This document shows, one piece after another, positions 390 through 9,355 of a stretch of DNA of 11,056 bases (position 1 is its first letter; the number at the start of each line of letters is the position of its first letter). Position numbers and translations under genes: made by a program. Source of the stretch: an uncultured archaeon (GTDB lineage: Archaea; Asgardarchaeota; Jordiarchaeia; Jordiarchaeales; Jordiarchaeaceae); contig CAZECW010000189.1 of NCBI GenBank assembly GCA_964510585.1, forward strand, positions 1 to 11,056, written 5' to 3'. The notes under the pieces were generated by a model. The model saw only the letters and a program-made list of their open reading frames with translations, searched no databases and was not told the origin of the DNA.

Positions 390-1337
390 ATGGCCGCATT
401 AACTGCTTGGCGAGAGAAATGCATCATAACATGTGCACTTACCGGAGGTGCAACCTTCCCCGCCCAGTCAAAATACATACCTGTAACACCAGACCAGATA
501 TCTGACGAGGCCAAAAAGGCTCGTGATGCAGGCGCAGCAATAGTCCACGTTCATGTGAGGGATCCCAAATCTGGGTTTCCAACAGCGGATTTAAAAGTCT
601 GGAGAGAAACCCTAGAAAAAATTAAGCAAAAGGCTGACGATCTCATAATTTGTTGTACAACTGGCGGCGGCAAAGACATGACTGCCGATGAAAGAATTGC
701 CGTGGCTGCAGAGTTCGCTCCCGAAATGTGCTCCTGCAACACTGAAACAATGAACTTCTCCATGTTCCCCCTCGCAGAGAGATTTAAAGACGACCAGCTA
801 ATGTACGCAATTCTTATGTCTACAAAGGATTACGTATTTAAGAACACATTTGCAGACGTAGAGAGATTTATTGGCATAATGTATGAAAATAATGTTAAAC
901 CCGAATTTGAATGCTATGGACCTAATGGACTCTGGAACCTTATGGCAATGATCAGGTTCGGGTGGGTAAAACTACCCGCACATATGCAATTCGTCCTAGG
1001 AGTCTTGGGAGGAACCGGAAACACCCCCTACGAACTGGTACACATATACACTGAAGCTCAAAGAATACTCGGCCTAAACAATTTCACGTGGTCAGTAATT
1101 GGAGTAGGGTATCCAGCGCAATTCCATCTCGGCGCTGTAGCTGCAACAATGGGAGGCCATGTGCGGGTGGGTTTAGAGGACAACCTATATATCAGGTACA
1201 GAGAACTTTCACCTGGTAATGCACCACTAGTTGAGAAAATGAGGAGAATCATTGAGGATTTGGGCAGAGAAATTGCTACCCCCGACGAAGCCAGAAAAAT
1301 GTTGGGACTTAAAGGAATAGACAAAGTTAACTTCTAA
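390..1337 (+). CDS. kce: BKACE / 3-keto-5-aminohexanoate cleavage enzyme family protein (DUF849), substrate uncertain
   Basis: 315 aa with family motifs: ITCALTG, P-x-TPDQI, Zn-binding VHVHVRDP, TTGG, PEFECY, QFVLGVLGG, GGHVRVGLEDN, ATPDEARKMLGL. The Glu14 (TGAE) of true lysine-pathway Kce is replaced (TGGA). Confidence 0.95.
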   Translation: MAALTAWREKCIITCALTGGATFPAQSKYIPVTPDQISDEAKKARDAGAAIVHVHVRDPKSGFPTADLKVWRETLEKIKQKADDLIICCTTGGGKDMTADERIAVAAEFAPEMCSCNTETMNFSMFPLAERFKDDQLMYAILMSTKDYVFKNTFADVERFIGIMYENNVKPEFECYGPNGLWNLMAMIRFGWVKLPAHMQFVLGVLGGTGNTPYELVHIYTEAQRILGLNNFTWSVIGVGYPAQFHLGAVAATMGGHVRVGLEDNLYIRYRELSPGNAPLVEKMRRIIEDLGREIATPDEARKMLGLKGIDKVNF

Positions 1338-1578: not shown

Positions 1579-2529
1579 TCACTTGAATATATCTTTGGTT
1601 TTCTTTTCCATCTCTTTAAGGTCGCCCTTCTTTAATTGCTTGGGATTATAGTATTTCGCCCTAGAGGATTCGGGAAGCCAGTTATCTGGCACACTAATGG
1701 TCTTGACTTCTCCAGCTGGAGCCGGTGCAGGTGTATGGGCTGGTTCTGCTGCGTATGCTAGTTGTGGTGGGGGTGGACCATACGTACCTACACCTGTTGG
1801 CTGAGTTGGGGCTTGATAGCCCGGAGGTGGGCCATATTGGACTGGCGAGGGGCGGGGAGCCCTTATTTGGGCTTCTGGTCTTATTTTTCCTAGAACAGCT
1901 GAAATTTGTTGTCTGAGCTGCATTGATGGTGGGGGTGCAATTCCCCCGGGGCCGTATGGTGTCTGGGGTGCGGTGGCTACAGCTTCCTGTAGCTTATTTA
2001 ACTCTTTTGAGAATACTGAGGGTTTAACGAATTTCTCCTCTACTATTCCTCCTCTGGAGGGTCTGTATCTTCCGAATTCTTCCTGTGATGGCGCTCCTCC
2101 CGACCCTAGGTTCTCTTTGGAGATGAAACTGGCGGGTTCTATTGTTCGTCTTGTAGGTTGTCTAGTGGGAGGTGTTCTTACTGGTGCTGGGTAACTTTCT
2201 TCTACTGGTGTAGGCTCTTCTCGTATTTGGGGTGTGTATTCTTCACTTGGGGTTGGTCCATGAACTATTGGTGTGGGTTTTGGTCTCATTTGAGGGGGGG
2301 CTTCTGGGGCTTCTTTAGGTTCGAGAGGAAAATGTTTTGGTGTTTCTCCCGAGAAGGAGGCCCAGTTTTCAATACTGTCGATTTTGCTTTCGAGGTCTAA
2401 GATTCTTTGATTTATGAAGGCGATTTCTTGCCTCACGGTTTCTGTGTATTGGTCAAAGACTTCCGCAATTTTTTCGATTCCTTGTTCCAGCCTATTTAAG
2501 GCTTCTTCAACTTTTTTGTCTCTACCCAT
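1579..2529 (-). CDS. Hypothetical protein: N-terminal coiled coil, long proline-rich disordered region, short conserved-looking C-terminal motif
   Basis: 316-aa ORF with ATG preceded by GGGGGAG; heptad pattern in residues ~7-55 (VEEALNRLEQGIEKI...INQRILDLESKIDSIE); Pro-rich residues ~64-272; no competing ORF of similar length. Confidence 0.85.
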   Translation of the reverse strand: MGRDKKVEEALNRLEQGIEKIAEVFDQYTETVRQEIAFINQRILDLESKIDSIENWASFSGETPKHFPLEPKEAPEAPPQMRPKPTPIVHGPTPSEEYTPQIREEPTPVEESYPAPVRTPPTRQPTRRTIEPASFISKENLGSGGAPSQEEFGRYRPSRGGIVEEKFVKPSVFSKELNKLQEAVATAPQTPYGPGGIAPPPSMQLRQQISAVLGKIRPEAQIRAPRPSPVQYGPPPGYQAPTQPTGVGTYGPPPPQLAYAAEPAHTPAPAPAGEVKTISVPDNWLPESSRAKYYNPKQLKKGDLKEMEKKTKDIFK

Positions 2530-2650
2530 CGATTCTCCCCCAAAAAAATTGGAGGTATTTAAATATTCTTTATTTTTTAAATATAAATATCTATCACTCT
2601 ACACTGTCTTTCAACACAAATTATTAGTTAGAAAATAGGGTGTGGGATAA
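2530..2650. promoter_or_regulatory. Divergent promoter region between the Pro-rich gene and the Fe-S gene pair
   Basis: AT-rich TATA-like cores (ATTTAAAT at 2557-2564; TTTAAATATAAATA at ~2576-2589) readable on both strands; G-rich RBS-like stretches next to both start codons. Confidence 0.45.
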
Positions 2651-3364
2651 GTGATAATTGATGGGGAAAAGTGTGTAGGTTGTGGGGCTTGTGTACCTTA
2701 TTGTCCTGTTAACGCCATTTTGCTGGAGAATGGTAAGGCAAGAATAGATGAGGCTAGGTGTGTTGAGTGTTTTACTTGTTACCGTTCCTGGATTTGTCCG
2801 GAGGGCGCGATTAAAATACCCGTTTTAGAGTGGCCCAGAGAAATTCGGAACGCCTTTAGTGATGTTGCGGGTACACACAAGGTGACGGGTATTCCTGGGA
2901 GGGGAACAGAGGAAATGAAAACAAATGATATTACTGATAGGTACGGCTGGGGAGAGGTTGGTTTTTGTGTGGAGCTTGGAAGACCAGGTGTGGGAACAAG
3001 CTTTAGGGAAGCAGAAAAAGTTTCTAAAGTTTTGGCTGGAAAAGGGGTGGAGTTTGAGAAGCAAAATCCCTATACACATCTTATAGATGAATCTGGAAAG
3101 TTGAGATTCAATATTGGTGAGGAAAGGGTTCTTTCCTGCTTGATTGAATTCAAAACCAAGCTAGAAAATGTCCCAGAAATCCTCAGAACACTGAGGAGCC
3201 TTGAAAGCGAAGTTGAGACCGTATTTACAGTGGGAGTGATTTCAAGGTTCAATCCTGATGGTTCTATTCCCATACTTTCCCTGATTGAAGGGGAGGGGTT
3301 CAAGGTGCGGCCTAATGCAAAAATCAACCTAGGTCTGGGAAAAAGACCCGGAGGCGATTCCTAG
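2651..3364 (+). CDS. 2x[4Fe-4S] ferredoxin-domain protein with an uncharacterised C-terminal domain
   Basis: GTG start; CxxCxxCxxxCP (C8,C11,C14,C18) and variant CxxCxxC-x5-CP (C37,C40,C43,C49); C-terminal ~180 aa with [11 protein letters not shown] and VELGRPGVG motifs. Confidence 0.9.
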
Positions 3365-3954
3365 TGACGCATACTCTACACCGTTTGGGCGATGAGGACT
3401 CCCTAAAAAAAGACTATGTTGTGGTGGCTATTTATGCTCATGGAATAAATGACAATCAACCAGATTCACGGGACAAGCTCCTGAGAATAGCTGAGATACT
3501 GAAATCTCAGAGACCCATAAACATGATAAATGAACTTCTTTGGAACTTTACACCAGCAATCCAGGCGGTTTACGGCGACAAAGGCTCGTTTAAAGCGGCA
3601 CTCAGGCTTCTTAAAAAGGAAGACTTGGGAATATCAATAACAGTCAGCGGATTAATGTCAGAAATTAAAGAAATAGCGGAGGAACTTGGTCTCAAGCTAC
3701 ACACAGTTAACCTCTCACTAGGAGTATTCGGAAACAAGAAATTGCTCCCCTCAGAAAAAATATTAGAAATGACCTCAATGTGCGGACACCACTGCGTATC
3801 CCCAAACCTAGTCAAAAATTTAGTACAGCAAGTAATAAAGAACAAAATAACACCCGAAAAAGCGGCTGAAGAACTCTCTAAACCCTGCATTTGTGGCGTT
3901 TTTAACAAAGCAAGAGCTATAGACCTAATAAAAAACCTAATTTCACAAAAATAA
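3364..3954 (+). CDS. Hypothetical protein with MCGHHC and PCxCGVFN Cys/His motifs (putative metal binding)
   Basis: 196 aa; GTG start overlaps the upstream TAG by 1 nt (TAGTG at 3362-3366); C140, H142, H143, C144, C175, C177; N-terminal THTLHR. Confidence 0.85.
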   Translation: MTHTLHRLGDEDSLKKDYVVVAIYAHGINDNQPDSRDKLLRIAEILKSQRPINMINELLWNFTPAIQAVYGDKGSFKAALRLLKKEDLGISITVSGLMSEIKEIAEELGLKLHTVNLSLGVFGNKKLLPSEKILEMTSMCGHHCVSPNLVKNLVQQVIKNKITPEKAAEELSKPCICGVFNKARAIDLIKNLISQK

Positions 3955-3959
3955 ATAGC

Positions 3960-3988
3960 TGGAAGCTTTTTTAGGCTTCCAATTTTTT
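3960..3988. terminator. Hairpin plus T-tract in the convergent gap, probable terminator (possibly bidirectional)
   Basis: TGGAAGC (3960-3966) / GCTTCCA (3975-3981) perfect 7-bp stem with T-rich loop, followed by T6 (3983-3988), in a 32-nt gap between two stop codons. Confidence 0.55.
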
Positions 3989-5300: not shown

Positions 5301-7004
5301 ATGTCTAGTGGAAGGAGAATTGTTTTCACCCGTGACGCCACGGGACTGGTCAGAGAGATTTCACTTATAGATGCGGTTGCCATAACCTTTTCCTTCGTCA
5401 TCGCAGGAGGCATAATGTTCCTATCCGTCCAGTCTCTGTCTCCAGGATATTTCCCCGGAGCAAACCTCCCAGTATCATACATGGGCGGCCTAATTTTGAT
5501 GCTACCAATAGCAGTGGTTTACGCAGTGCTCGCTAGAGCAATGCCCAGAAGTGGTGGTGACTACGTTTTCATTAGCAGAATTCTGGGTCCTGGATGGGGA
5601 TTCATTGCCTCTTGGGGTTCATGGATAGTTACCATGTTCACTATCGGGGTTCTGTGTTTCCAAGCTGTTTCCTTCATAAGTCTCTTCACCATGTACTATG
5701 GCCTCTGGACTTGGGATCTGGGACTACTAGGATGGTCAATCCAGTTAACCGATCCCATTTGGGGGGTCATTTTCGGTATAGTTCTCATTTTCTTCTTCAG
5801 TGTGGTACTAATGGCTAGTATGAGGGGCTCCCTTTGGCTGATGCGAATCCTCTTCATTCTACCCCTTCTGGCGGGTTTGGCAACAATCTGGATTCTGGCA
5901 ACCCACTCCCCACTCGATATGATATGGGCTTGGAACACCATTTTCGGATGGGAAGGACAGAACCTCTTCGGAATTCCCCTCGGAGCGTATGGAGACATAT
6001 TCCGCGTGGCTTACCAGAACTGGTGGTGGCTCTTCTCCTTTAGAGCCTCTCTCAACGGGCTCAGCGACACTATGGGAGCAGTTATAGTATCTATGTTCGC
6101 ATTCTCGGGGTACATGAGTCTCACTTACATAGGTGGCGAGGTTAGAGACACAAGGAGAACATTTTTCTATGTTATGGTGATAGGCCTCTTCTTCATCTTC
6201 CTATTCTACGTGGGCATAATTTACCCCCTGCAAGCCAACTATGGCCCCTTTGTTACAGCTTATAACTATCTCATATACATGAAGAGTGGCAACTTCCTCT
6301 ATTGGTGGTTGTGGGGAAGCCAGCTAAACCAAGGAAATCTCCAATACTGGATCCAATATGGAGCTTGGTACTACCTAGGAAAACTTCCAGCGCCCATTCC
6401 GGCTAGTGTTCCCTTATTTGCGGCCCCTCTAGCTGGTTTGAGCTGGCTGAGTTTGTTCATAATTGCTGGCGGTACACTATGGCTAATTAACTATATTATG
6501 CCCGGCCTTCTAACAACTTCCAGATACATTTTTGCCTGGAGCTTCGACAGACTGATGCCCACAAGGTTAAGCAAACTGAGCGAAAAAAGCAACACGCCTG
6601 TAAATGCAATAGCTGTTTCTATGACCATATCTATGGTGGGCGTTATCCTGAGCTACTGGAGTGCGCTCCAACAGGCATTAAACATTGTGTTTCTGGCAGT
6701 TATCGTCATAGCCCTTACCATCATAGCGGGCCTAAGATTCTATGCTAGAAGAAGGGACCTGGCTGAAAGAACATATTACCCAAGGATTGGAAAAGTTCCA
6801 GTGCTTGGAATCTGTGGAGTTTTAGCATTTATAGCTCTTGTCCCACTGCTTCTAGCCGCACTTGCAACCTTTAACCTTGGCTCGCTATTAATTGGTCTAA
6901 TTGTATACATAGTCGGAGCTGCCATTTACTTCACAATGAAGAGGCGGAACAAGAAAGCCGGCGTAGACATAGAGACAATATTTAGAGAAATACCTCCCGA
7001 ATAA
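5301..7004 (+). CDS. APC-family amino acid/polyamine permease
   Basis: 567 aa, about 12 hydrophobic segments; archaeal-type N-terminus FTRDATGLVREI; AMPRSGGDYVFISR; Y-x-GGEVRD; SRYIFAWSFDR...TP; C-terminus FREIPPE. Confidence 0.95.
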   Translation: MSSGRRIVFTRDATGLVREISLIDAVAITFSFVIAGGIMFLSVQSLSPGYFPGANLPVSYMGGLILMLPIAVVYAVLARAMPRSGGDYVFISRILGPGWGFIASWGSWIVTMFTIGVLCFQAVSFISLFTMYYGLWTWDLGLLGWSIQLTDPIWGVIFGIVLIFFFSVVLMASMRGSLWLMRILFILPLLAGLATIWILATHSPLDMIWAWNTIFGWEGQNLFGIPLGAYGDIFRVAYQNWWWLFSFRASLNGLSDTMGAVIVSMFAFSGYMSLTYIGGEVRDTRRTFFYVMVIGLFFIFLFYVGIIYPLQANYGPFVTAYNYLIYMKSGNFLYWWLWGSQLNQGNLQYWIQYGAWYYLGKLPAPIPASVPLFAAPLAGLSWLSLFIIAGGTLWLINYIMPGLLTTSRYIFAWSFDRLMPTRLSKLSEKSNTPVNAIAVSMTISMVGVILSYWSALQQALNIVFLAVIVIALTIIAGLRFYARRRDLAERTYYPRIGKVPVLGICGVLAFIALVPLLLAALATFNLGSLLIGLIVYIVGAAIYFTMKRRNKKAGVDIETIFREIPPE

Positions 7005-7191: not shown

Positions 7192-8277
7192 TTATTTGTG
7201 CTCCTTTACAGCTATAGTTATGCCTTTCAAGAAGTCTTCTGGCTCAACCATGGGGATTTCCCAGCCGGGTTTCTTGTAGGTCTCCTTAATCTTTTCCAAA
7301 AGCTTGTGCTCATCTGTGGCGTCTAAACCTACCAGCGACTTTTCCATGTCCCACAAGTAAGCATCCGGCCTCGCATAAAAATCACCAGAAAACATTATGT
7401 CATCAATTTTTCCCGAACTATTCAGCAGAAGATGAGTTACGATAAGCTTTCTCCCTTTATATCGGCTAAAGAGTAATTCCTGATCCCCTCTTACTTTGGA
7501 GAATCTTTTCTTGCTGGAAACTTTGAAAGTGTGTTCTGGTGAAGAAGCCATCGCTCTCCATTTCTGCCTTATCTTTTCTTCCTCCTCAGTCATTTCACCC
7601 TCAACCAGCTTGACACCTATCTCCTGTTCAAAAGCCTCCACAAAGGCATCCCTAACTTCCTCCTTACTCGGAAGACGTCCGGTTTCTGCCTCCACACTGG
7701 TCACCCACTCAGAAACACTCTTGGCCTTTTTATCCGAAAATTTTTCCGGAGGAATCTTAGCCACCTTGGAGAACAAATCCATATCTGGCTCGCCGATACT
7801 AAGAATGGTATTGCCTAAAATGATTTCAAAAACCTGCGCAAAACCGAATCCTGTAATCTTCCTCTCACCCACCTTTACATCGCCGATATGTTTATACCAC
7901 GGGTCCTTTACTCCCAGCTTCTTGTACGCTTCAACTATCACTTTTCCAAATTTTTGGAAGGCAATGTCCATATTCGGAAAGAAATTATCATAGTATAATA
8001 GACCCACTGCCATGCTGGCATTTTTATCTACAAATATTGTGCCGCCACCAACCCCTAACCTTCTTATTACTCGGACTCCGTATTCCTTACACTTTTCTAG
8101 GTCAACTTCGGTGTCTATGTCTTGGAAAAAGCCCAGACTCACACCAGTTTCCTTAAAGCCTACAATGGACATCCCCATGGGGCCATTTTTCTGCAATTCC
8201 ACGGCTGGGCCCCCAAGGGCTACTGTGTCTAACATGTCGCATTCTGGAAGGAAAAGAAGCCTCCACTCTTTAGTCAA
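7192..8277 (-). CDS. lplA: Lipoate-protein ligase A family protein (catalytic domain + C-terminal domain), divergent
   Basis: 361 aa; TTG start with GGAG RBS; VSLGFFQD...EVDLEKC, VIRRLGVGGGTIFVD (cf. RRxSGGGAVYHD), GDVKVGERKITG with the adenylation Lys; C-terminal IDDIMFSGDFY...LEKSLVG-type domain. Confidence 0.88.
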   Translation of the reverse strand: MTKEWRLLFLPECDMLDTVALGGPAVELQKNGPMGMSIVGFKETGVSLGFFQDIDTEVDLEKCKEYGVRVIRRLGVGGGTIFVDKNASMAVGLLYYDNFFPNMDIAFQKFGKVIVEAYKKLGVKDPWYKHIGDVKVGERKITGFGFAQVFEIILGNTILSIGEPDMDLFSKVAKIPPEKFSDKKAKSVSEWVTSVEAETGRLPSKEEVRDAFVEAFEQEIGVKLVEGEMTEEEEKIRQKWRAMASSPEHTFKVSSKKRFSKVRGDQELLFSRYKGRKLIVTHLLLNSSGKIDDIMFSGDFYARPDAYLWDMEKSLVGLDATDEHKLLEKIKETYKKPGWEIPMVEPEDFLKGITIAVKEHK

Positions 8278-8647: not shown

Positions 8648-9355
8648 ATGAGCCAGCCAAACTCGAAAAGCAGCATGTATAACAAGAACCCGCTGTCTGC
8701 AGGTGTACTGGTTGAGTTTCGTTCTTGGTCAGAACATATGCACTCTGACTCCTTTTCCCGAACCAGAGAGAATAAACTTGCAAATCCCAATGTTCTCAAT
8801 AAAATAGTCCAAAAAATCTGTCACACTCTCCAAAAAGAGGGGCACTTTTGCCTGTATGTATGTGTCTTTTGTACAAGTTATACTATTTCCCAGCCTCAAA
8901 GACGTGAAAACGAATTAGTTTCAGCTGCTGTCACACTGTGGAACGAAACAATTGTTCTTAGCTTTCAATTCTGTATTTCTGAAAGCGTAAGTCTGGCTGA
9001 AGTGTGTAGTAGAAAAGCTGCACTAATCATTAATGTTGACGGGTACGTTGGGGGAGGGGGGAACATTTACTCTAATTTTTCCTACCAGCGAGGATTACTG
9101 CATAATTTATGCGTGAAGCCTGCATACCCCAGGCAAGTATGCAACACGAAAAAAACTTTTTCGTTTGCCTTAAGTGTGGTAAACTGGTCGGAGTGTTTTG
9201 TGCGTGTGACTTTTGCTTTTACATTCCTGCTTATCGGGTTGGGGGTCGAAGGACAGAGAGAGGGAGAAGTTCTTAAGGGGGAGGTAAAGCTCGAGCCGTG
9301 GAGAACAATCGCCTCTGGAGATCCAAGATATGTGGCTACGGCCGCGAGTCTATGA
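8648..9355 (+). CDS. Orphan ORF, 235 aa, Cys-rich (9 Cys); coding status uncertain
   Basis: Long open frame with no real gene on the opposite strand to explain it; ATG start with weak AAGGA upstream; no recognisable motif, and composition is atypical of the other proteins here. Confidence 0.25.
   Translation: MSQPNSKSSMYNKNPLSAGVLVEFRSWSEHMHSDSFSRTRENKLANPNVLNKIVQKICHTLQKEGHFCLYVCVFCTSYTISQPQRRENELVSAAVTLWNETIVLSFQFCISESVSLAEVCSRKAALIINVDGYVGGGGNIYSNFSYQRGLLHNLCVKPAYPRQVCNTKKTFSFALSVVNWSECFVRVTFAFTFLLIGLGVEGQREGEVLKGEVKLEPWRTIASGDPRYVATAASL
9109..9276 (+). CDS. Possible small Zn-finger-like protein, 55 aa (or 45 aa from ATG 9139)
   Basis: Manual translation: MREACIPQASMQHEKNFFVCLKCGKLVGVFCACDFCFYIPAYRVGGRRTERGRSS*; CxxCG...CxCxxC; below the ORF-track length cut-off; nested out of frame in the 235-aa ORF. 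Confidence 0.25.
   Translation: MREACIPQASMQHEKNFFVCLKCGKLVGVFCACDFCFYIPAYRVGGRRTERGRSS

Follow-up and report, generated by a model that had tools for sequence, protein, structure and literature searches.

A co-conserved gene pair of an Asgard archaeon: candidate subunits of an unnamed iron-sulfur oxidoreductase

What is the function of a small ferredoxin that continues into a domain without a family name, and whose gene shares a base with the gene for a second, equally anonymous protein? This question is raised by genes A and B of an uncultured archaeon of the Asgardarchaeota (Jordiarchaeia), which lie on contig CAZECW010000189.1 of assembly GCA_964510585.1; the whole stretch analysed, 11,056 nucleotides (nt), is referred to here as the window. 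A preliminary description, made from the DNA alone, had taken the pair for a translationally coupled iron-sulfur (Fe-S) and Cys-His protein pair and a candidate two-subunit metalloenzyme. The analysis reported here leaves little doubt that A-B is a real, conserved two-subunit Fe-S module. In its fuller form, to which we assign a probability of about 0.5, our reading is that A and B are the subunits of an unnamed, modular Fe-S oxidoreductase, built around a pseudo-symmetric heterodimer core, that acts on small organic acids.

A coupled gene pair and its distribution

The two genes, and the signals that surround them, are arranged as follows.

2651..3364, plus strand: gene A, 237 amino acids (aa), GTG start, TAG stop (3362-3364); the start aligns with Met1 of homologues
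3364..3954, plus strand: gene B, 196 aa, GTG start, TAA stop
3350..3354, plus strand: GGAGG, a Shine-Dalgarno-like element within the 3' end of A, 10 nt before the start of B
2530..2650, no strand: A+T-rich intergenic region of 121 bp with TATA-like runs, common to A-B and to a divergent open reading frame (ORF; 1579-2529, minus strand)
3960..3988, no strand: terminator-like hairpin (9 bp stem) followed by a T-run, between the convergent genes for B and a pyrophosphatase

The TAG of A ends where the GTG of B begins, giving a one-base overlap (TAGTG), and the start of B is fixed by its near-invariant N-terminus, M-T-H-x-L-H-R. Both ORFs, their stop/start overlap and all the quoted motifs (including two CxxCxxCxxxCP and PCICGVFN) had been given in the preliminary description and were found again in the translations, as was the terminator-like element placed after B. 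The A+T-rich region upstream of A is likely, from its sequence, to be the promoter region of A-B. Full-length relatives are numerous for both proteins, the closest named homologues coming from Jordarchaeia and other Asgard archaea.

Relatives of B were found by a genome scan in at least 593 GTDB species genomes, whose carriers include Asgard archaea, Bathyarchaeia, Thermoproteota (Sulfolobales and Desulfurococcales), Chloroflexota (Dehalococcoidia and Anaerolineae), Bacillota and Thermodesulfobacteriota. An exhaustive profile search with B returned 870 clusters at 50% identity, 504 of them at E ≤ 1e-10, and the cluster representatives were nearly all 200-230 aa long and matched from residue 1. 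Gene contexts were analysed for the best 80 of the at least 593 loci, with ORFs called in this analysis. Across these loci, a gene encoding the C-terminal domain of A (the A C-domain) lies directly upstream of 86 of the 95 B genes, three more B genes being at contig ends, and B lies downstream of 86 of the 88 A C-domains. The spacing of the two genes is tight: of 84 pairs, 23 overlap (gaps of -4 or -1 nt), 57 are separated by 0-30 nt and four by more, and the median gap is 11 nt. Homologues of A and B therefore do not occur independently, which is the outcome that a coupled pair, as first described, would lead one to expect.

Several bacterial loci carry two or three A-B pairs in tandem. In a quick tree of 89 B proteins, the tandem copies of B from one locus fall into different clades, so that the subfamilies must be old; such a split of tandem paralogues is what would be expected for substrate-specialised enzymes. 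The Asgard B sequences, including that of the window, form one clade that is supported by an SH-like approximate likelihood ratio test (SH-aLRT) value of 95. Outside this main clade stands the B protein of the Asgard archaeon Borrarchaeum (locus L074), which groups with Bathyarchaeia (SH-aLRT 97) and whose locus has Bathyarchaeia-type neighbours, a glycerate kinase and a polyferredoxin, a pattern that suggests lateral movement of the entire cassette. Occurrence within the window's phylum is patchy, the module being present in 26 of 201 genomes (17 of the 88 of high quality) and mostly in one family. A-B is single-copy in the window's genome, where the module is accessory.

Some Asgard loci depart from the usual gene structure. 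In eight of them (L006:2730, L010:6001, L016:952, L017:6001, L019:6001, L024:5988, L034:2229 and L035:6001) ATT or ATA stands in the position of the Met1 codon of B, right before the conserved THSLHR, with a GGTG or GAGG element 6-9 nt upstream; standard ORF calling shortens B in these loci by about 18-24 codons, and non-canonical initiation of the second subunit is possible. A metagenome-assembled genome (MAG) of the Thorarchaeota (L043:4786-5749) has an A C-domain that ends after about 85 residues and a B that begins at about residue 51; this is either what remains of an A-B pair after an internal deletion or an error of assembly. One in-frame stop lies within A at locus L008.

Two similar domains and a Cys3-His tail

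The domains and conserved elements of the two proteins map to the window as follows, B conservation being taken over 132 representatives.

2651..2821, plus strand: ferredoxin domain of clostridial 2x[4Fe-4S] type, residues 1-57 of A; recognised by Pfam Fer4 families, invariant Cys and fold match
2822..3361, plus strand: ACT-like (beta-alpha-beta-beta-alpha-beta) domain without a named family, residues 58-237 of A, as predicted in an AlphaFold2 model
2897..2929, plus strand: loop of A from G83 to residue 93, in which G83, R84, G85, T86, E88, K90 and N92 are invariant in alignments
3364..3384, plus strand: N-terminal motif M-T-H-T-L-H-R of B; H3 conserved in 90%, H6 in 95% and R7 in 99%
3385..3723, plus strand: ferredoxin-like domain, residues 8-120 of B, a putative distant paralogue of the A C-domain by hhalign; its closing N-L-S-L-G corresponds to N-L-G-L-G in A
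3781..3789, plus strand: C140-G141-H142 of B, 100% conserved
3886..3906, plus strand: C175-I-C177-G-V-F-N181 of B; C175 and C177 100% conserved, N181 99%

All eight Cys residues of the A ferredoxin domain (C8, C11, C14 and C18; C37, C40, C43 and C49) are invariant in an alignment of 44 sequences, and Fer4_6, Fer4, Fer4_10 and Fer4_7 score above their Pfam cutoffs in A. In fold comparisons, residues 1-60 of A superimpose on 7vzg_B with Z 8.9 and a root-mean-square deviation (rmsd) of 1.9 over 60 aa, and the ferredoxin domain on 1dur with Z 8.5 and rmsd 1.4 over 54 aa. Both the motifs and the dicluster fold of the clostridial 2x[4Fe-4S] ferredoxins are thus present.

The AlphaFold2 model of A as a whole is confident (predicted local distance difference test, pLDDT, 88.8). 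The conserved loop of the ACT-like domain, GRGTEE.KTND, precedes strand 1 and contains the invariant charged or polar residues R84, T86, E88, K90 and N92; beyond this loop, the invariant non-Cys residues of A in the alignment are R97, G110, R111, P112, P140, S162, E166, K224 and G228. Matches of this domain to known structures are ACT-like in a generic way only, with Z of 5.8-6.5, a range that is itself generic: the GcvR-like 1u8s gave Z 6.5 and rmsd 2.7 over 79 aa, the aspartokinase ACT domain 3c1m gave Z 5.8, and 1yqh_B (Foldseek E 1.4e-2, TM 0.50) was no better than many unrelated ferredoxin-like folds. Several A homologues bear the NCBI label DUF362 (PF04015), which we rejected for A: this family has no Pfam match in A at E ≤ 0.01 and none in 34 A C-domains scanned at E ≤ 1, and the label probably derives from the Fer4 part of these proteins.

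In B, besides the N-terminal motif and the tail residues listed above, G123 (99%), D17 (95%) and H113 (93%) are widely kept. The preliminary description had proposed a metal or cluster site built from Cys and His residues of B; the set that it named, C140, H142, C175 and C177, proves to be exactly the invariant one, whereas H143 and C144 of the motif MCGHHC are poorly conserved, H143 being kept in 16 and C144 in five of the 132 representatives. C144 was accordingly dropped as a ligand. In the AlphaFold2 model of B (pLDDT 90.7) the tail is a small helical unit with the ligands in two inter-helix loops, one of which consists of CxC followed by a helix. This recalls the BFD-like [2Fe-2S] domain, in which CxC...CxxC is likewise set in a small helical unit, but in B the halves come in reverse order (CGH...CxC) and one ligand is His; Fer2_BFD (PF04324) was not matched by B in Pfam at E ≤ 1. 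Fold matches of B reach Z 6.3, and those to MTH1187/YkoF-like proteins Z 5.2 (1vk8) and Z 5.6 (2ibo), again within the generic range and no better than many unrelated ferredoxin-like folds.

Are the two anonymous domains related to each other? With hhalign, A 84-230 aligns with B 8-120 in one register (E 2.9e-4 to 2.8e-3), pairing one ten-residue segment of A with LGDEDSLKKD of B, another with ISITVSGLMSE, and KINLGLG with TVNLSLG. The score of 32.1 compares with 13.6 +/- 2.5 (maximum 23.0) in 60 column-shuffled controls and with 20.5 in a reversed control. The predicted secondary-structure elements come in the same order in both domains, and R7 and D17 of B sit in the loop equivalent to the conserved loop of A. 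These similarities, weak but significant, point to the N-terminal domain of B (the B N-domain) as a distant paralogue of the A C-domain. The beta-alpha-beta-beta-alpha-beta fold predicted here is also that of ACT and ACT-like domains and of MTH1187/YkoF-like dimers, and as in those groups two copies would be expected to pair side by side; A-B differs from them in its fused ferredoxin domain, its Cys3-His tail and its invariant charged loops before strand 1, and the fold scores that link it to them are generic.

Searches for a named family agree with the preliminary description, which could assign neither domain to one: no characterised family found in Pfam, NCBIfam, or PDB sequence and fold searches covers either protein. 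Residues 58-237 of A and the whole of B have no Pfam or NCBIfam family match, and when 30 B and 34 A C-domain relatives were scanned singly at E ≤ 1, we recovered just Fer4 and the ACT-like family PF22754, the latter below its cutoff in 10 of the 30 B proteins (21.8 bits against 27.6). A PDB sequence and profile search gave no match for the A C-domain or B beyond weak single ones, to a glycerate kinase (E 0.0025, 56 residues) and a KDPG-aldolase fusion (E 0.049), both of which we treated as chance. When both AlphaFold2 models were compared with the PDB by Foldseek and VIA-align, nothing came back apart from the ferredoxin domain and ferredoxin-like folds of a generic kind, in searches that barely sampled the helical tail of B; the ESM Atlas gave unnamed clusters only. 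A literature search on the gene contexts of A-B found nothing relevant. For ten B representatives, every cluster member is a MAG "hypothetical protein", and these clusters thus offer no cultured organism that would link them to the literature.

Electron-input modules, transporters and neighbouring enzymes

If the ferredoxin domain of A relays electrons, as was proposed in the preliminary description, related loci might be expected to show other electron-transfer parts in its place or at its side. This is the case, and the idea of a redox relay that feeds a catalytic core gains support from it. Two Dehalococcoidales loci (L057 and L067) encode Fer4, Fer4_20 and Pyr_redox_2, a GltD/NfnB-type NAD(P)H flavoprotein, fused ahead of the A C-domain; in the Pfam scan Fer4_20 and Pyr_redox_2 were seen only in these relatives and not in the window's A. 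One protein (P0207) has Fer2_4 and Fer4 fused ahead of the A C-domain, in another (P0259) B is fused to a Fer4_11 polyferredoxin, and at locus L052 the gene for a rubredoxin-reductase-like flavoprotein ends 1 nt before A. A search aimed at longer homologues with A C-domain fusions yielded a single protein. The electron-input unit of L057 and L067 equals that of the GltD/NfnB-type systems (glutamate synthase GltBD, dihydropyrimidine dehydrogenase, NfnAB and SudAB). Unlike in those systems, the catalytic partner would here be the unnamed core of A C-domain and B rather than a flavin TIM barrel or an amidotransferase, and the window's A has the small ferredoxin domain only.

Three distant lineages account for 12-13 loci in which a gene for aldehyde:ferredoxin oxidoreductase (AFOR) adjoins A-B. 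In Dehalococcoidia and in one Desulfurococcaceae MAG this gene immediately precedes A, while the Bathyarchaeia operon has the order A, B, polyferredoxin, ThiS/MoaD-like, AFOR, ThiS/MoaD-like. These arrangements resemble the AorABC-type tungsten aldehyde oxidoreductase complex, which comprises AFOR, a polyferredoxin and a flavin adenine dinucleotide (FAD) subunit; A-B differs in having no similarity to the FAD subunit AorC, and most A-B loci are without AFOR.

Transport genes are a further recurrent feature. A transporter of a carboxylate-carrying family (MFS, TTT or TRAP) is encoded within four genes of A-B in 37 of 77 loci: in 21 Asgard loci the gene just before A encodes an MFS protein, bacteria have TctC-TctB-TctA-A-B operons, and TRAP DctM is found in several loci. 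The enzymes encoded nearby include Zn-alcohol dehydrogenase (13 loci), HMGL-like proteins (11 loci; in one case an HMGL+PYC_OADA gene immediately precedes a GltD-fused A), D-2-hydroxyacid dehydrogenase (eight loci) and class II glycerate kinase (six). The last two both occur in Bathyarchaeia; HMGL-like proteins occur together with Iso_dh in Sulfolobales and are also found in Asgard loci, and Dehalococcoidia have a set of one LarA-like, two GlcD-like and one GlcF-like protein. Iso_dh, SDR and GntR-FCD regulators recur as well, and in nine Asgard loci, all of one closely syntenic group, MFS-A-B is preceded by a gene for a DtxR-type metal-dependent repressor. The common theme of the contexts is short hydroxy and oxo carboxylic acids, together with their aldehydes and alcohols.

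In Dehalococcoidales (L075:1-10729 and L056), AFOR, A-B, an extra B, a second A-B, a LarA-like racemase, a xylose-isomerase-like TIM barrel, two GlcD-like FAD oxidases and a Fer4_8 protein are encoded in this order, which gives the appearance of an island for the utilisation of 2-hydroxy acids, equipped with A-B of two or three subfamilies. In an Anaerolineaceae MAG (L042:3689-8109), A-B stands between an AllF/FdrA-like gene (CoA_binding and Ligase_CoA), which overlaps A-B, and an AllG-like gene (PF06545).

The window itself has a different set of neighbours, of which the following were characterised.

390-1337, plus strand: BKACE-family protein (Pfam, 333 bits)
1579-2529, minus strand: ORF of 316 aa, read divergently from A-B and unmatched in Pfam, NCBIfam and PDB; within the locus set, in the same position in two Jordarchaeia loci only
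7192-8277, minus strand: LplA-like lipoate-protein ligase, 361 aa; residues 274-356 also match the small subunit LplB, with scores far below the equivalog cutoffs
8648-9355, plus strand: ORF of 235 aa, matched by no family and no PDB entry

The BKACE protein scores 345.6 against a cutoff of 430 for the NCBIfam equivalog 3,5-dioxohexanoate:acetyl-CoA acetone transferase and is therefore a paralogue, to which no specificity is assigned. The product of 7192-8277 looks, by its two matches, like a fused LplA-LplB form. The preliminary description had looked to BKACE, lipoate ligase and amino-acid fermentation genes as possible kept partners of the pair. This expectation was not borne out: the BKACE paralogue, the 316-aa ORF, the Mn-pyrophosphatase, the amino-acid permease and the LplA-like ligase recur only in the two close Jordarchaeia loci.

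Weighing the functions proposed for A-B

How might such a module work? Our inference is of an enzyme in which A and B are bound to each other and in which an Fe-S cluster, and not zinc, occupies the Cys3-His site. In it, the A C-domain would pair with the B N-domain as a pseudo-symmetric heterodimer in the fashion of ACT domains, with both conserved loops and the N-terminus of B (H3, H6) lining a single pocket, which we suppose to be a carboxylate pocket because several invariant Arg and Lys residues fit one. The Fe-S cluster of the B tail would lie at or beside this pocket and exchange electrons with it, and electrons would move between the Cys3-His site and outside partners via the ferredoxin domain of A. 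Those partners may be ferredoxin, AFOR, or NAD(P)H acting through a flavoprotein. As substrate we envisage a small carboxylic acid that is imported by the MFS, TTT or TRAP transporter so often encoded beside the pair; 2-hydroxy acids, 2-oxo acids and products of either are the most likely candidates. The two-subunit redox enzyme first proposed for this locus is retained in outline, through the pairing, the conservation of Cys and His, and the want of a named family.

The nearest analogue in layout is LutABC / LldEFG (LUD domain, PF02589), in an analogy that does not extend to membership. In that complex, which acts on a 2-hydroxy acid (PMC3924224), a paralogous LUD domain is common to the dicluster protein LutB and to LutC, as an ACT-like one would be to the 2x[4Fe-4S] subunit A and its partner B. 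Both systems have a further Cys-rich element (LutA in the known one), are often encoded beside a permease and have no obvious flavin. A-B differs in having two genes rather than three, an ACT-like fold, and a CGH...CxC tail instead of CCG domains; the LUD domain was matched neither by A or B nor, at E ≤ 1, by any of the 30 B proteins and 34 A C-domains.

Several points weigh against an oxidoreductase of this kind. The gene contexts are heterogeneous, and one pathway common to all lineages was not seen. In the window no transporter adjoins A-B, the nearest being the amino-acid permease at 5301-7004, beyond the convergent pyrophosphatase gene. The hhalign probabilities behind the paralogy of the two domains are just 11-40%. 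No flavin, pterin or other organic-cofactor motif was seen in A-B, and proteins with ACT-like folds more commonly bind ligands than catalyse reactions.

The same observations can be read in other ways. A-B might be a non-redox Fe-S hydro-lyase, a dehydratase or isomerase for hydroxy acids of the aconitase or serine-dehydratase type, with a Cys3(-His) [4Fe-4S] cluster whose iron binds the substrate and a ferredoxin domain that keeps the cluster reduced or repairs it. The two-subunit layout would suit such an enzyme, as would exactly three invariant Cys with one ligand of an exchangeable type, and several contexts need a dehydratase or isomerase as partner (HMGL-like with Iso_dh in Sulfolobales, HMGL-like in Asgard archaea, and glycerate kinase with 2-hydroxyacid dehydrogenase in Bathyarchaeia). 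Yet the NAD(P)H flavoprotein fusions and the AFOR/polyferredoxin operons point to net electron flow, not to occasional repair, and there is no similarity to any Fe-S hydro-lyase family by hidden Markov models: the Pfam and NCBIfam scans contained no match to the aconitase family, the alpha and beta parts of Fe-S L-serine dehydratase, or class I fumarase/tartrate dehydratase. We consider a hydro-lyase rather unlikely. Those operons would in turn favour a non-enzymatic electron carrier or adaptor, in which a specialised ferredoxin and its partner dock on AFOR or other oxidoreductases; A has the ferredoxin domain, AFOR is immediately adjacent in its three lineages, a polyferredoxin is encoded after B, and B itself can be fused to Fer4_11. 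But about 65 of 77 loci are without AFOR, linkage to transporters is commoner than linkage to any single oxidoreductase, and the invariant charged and polar residues of both ACT-like domains exceed the needs of a docking module; we regard the adaptor as an unlikely explanation.

The linkage to transport has been counted for two further proposals. One is a redox- and ligand-sensitive regulatory module, whose ACT-like heterodimer would bind the transported metabolite while the Fe-S part senses redox state, so controlling the adjacent transporter or pathway. It draws on the ACT-like fold of both domains, on tight linkage to three unrelated transporter families, and on a weak structural likeness to transporter-associated MTH1187/YkoF-like binding proteins (1yqh; 1vk8 at Z 5.2). 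However, the fold matches are generic (Z about 5-6.5), neither a DNA-binding nor a transporter-interaction domain is present, and an NAD(P)H-oxidising flavoprotein fusion is hard to explain in a sensor; we hold this proposal to be improbable. The other is that A-B reduces imported metal-carboxylate chelates, such as ferric citrate or siderophore-like complexes, to free metal. TTT transporters carry metal-citrate, and this, with the DtxR-type repressor upstream of MFS-A-B and the conserved His, Asp and Glu in both loops, is what speaks for it. The DtxR gene is confined to its one syntenic Asgard group, though, the neighbours with roles in hydroxy acid, aldehyde and alcohol metabolism are left unexplained, and tandem triplication in one locus would be unusual for such a function; a chelate reductase is the least probable of these accounts.

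Returning to an oxidoreductase of small organic acids, a stronger version can be put forward more tentatively. The A C-domain and B could be the core of a new class of Fe-S-only oxidoreductase, an ACT-like heterodimer with a Cys3-His cluster and interchangeable electron modules (ferredoxin, NAD(P)H flavoprotein or tungsten AFOR), that carries out a redox step on imported 2-hydroxy, 2-oxo or related acids in anaerobic archaea and bacteria, Asgard archaea among them. A-B could in this way add a new catalytic module to the Fe-S enzyme repertoire. The pair is widespread and strongly conserved, yet it is annotated merely as "4Fe-4S binding protein" and "hypothetical protein", and its carriers (Asgard archaea, Bathyarchaeia, Dehalococcoidia and sulfate reducers) dominate anoxic sediments. 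The present analysis supplies concrete residues, partners and candidate substrates, and assigning the reaction of A-B would close a recurrent gap in the metabolic reconstructions of these uncultured groups.

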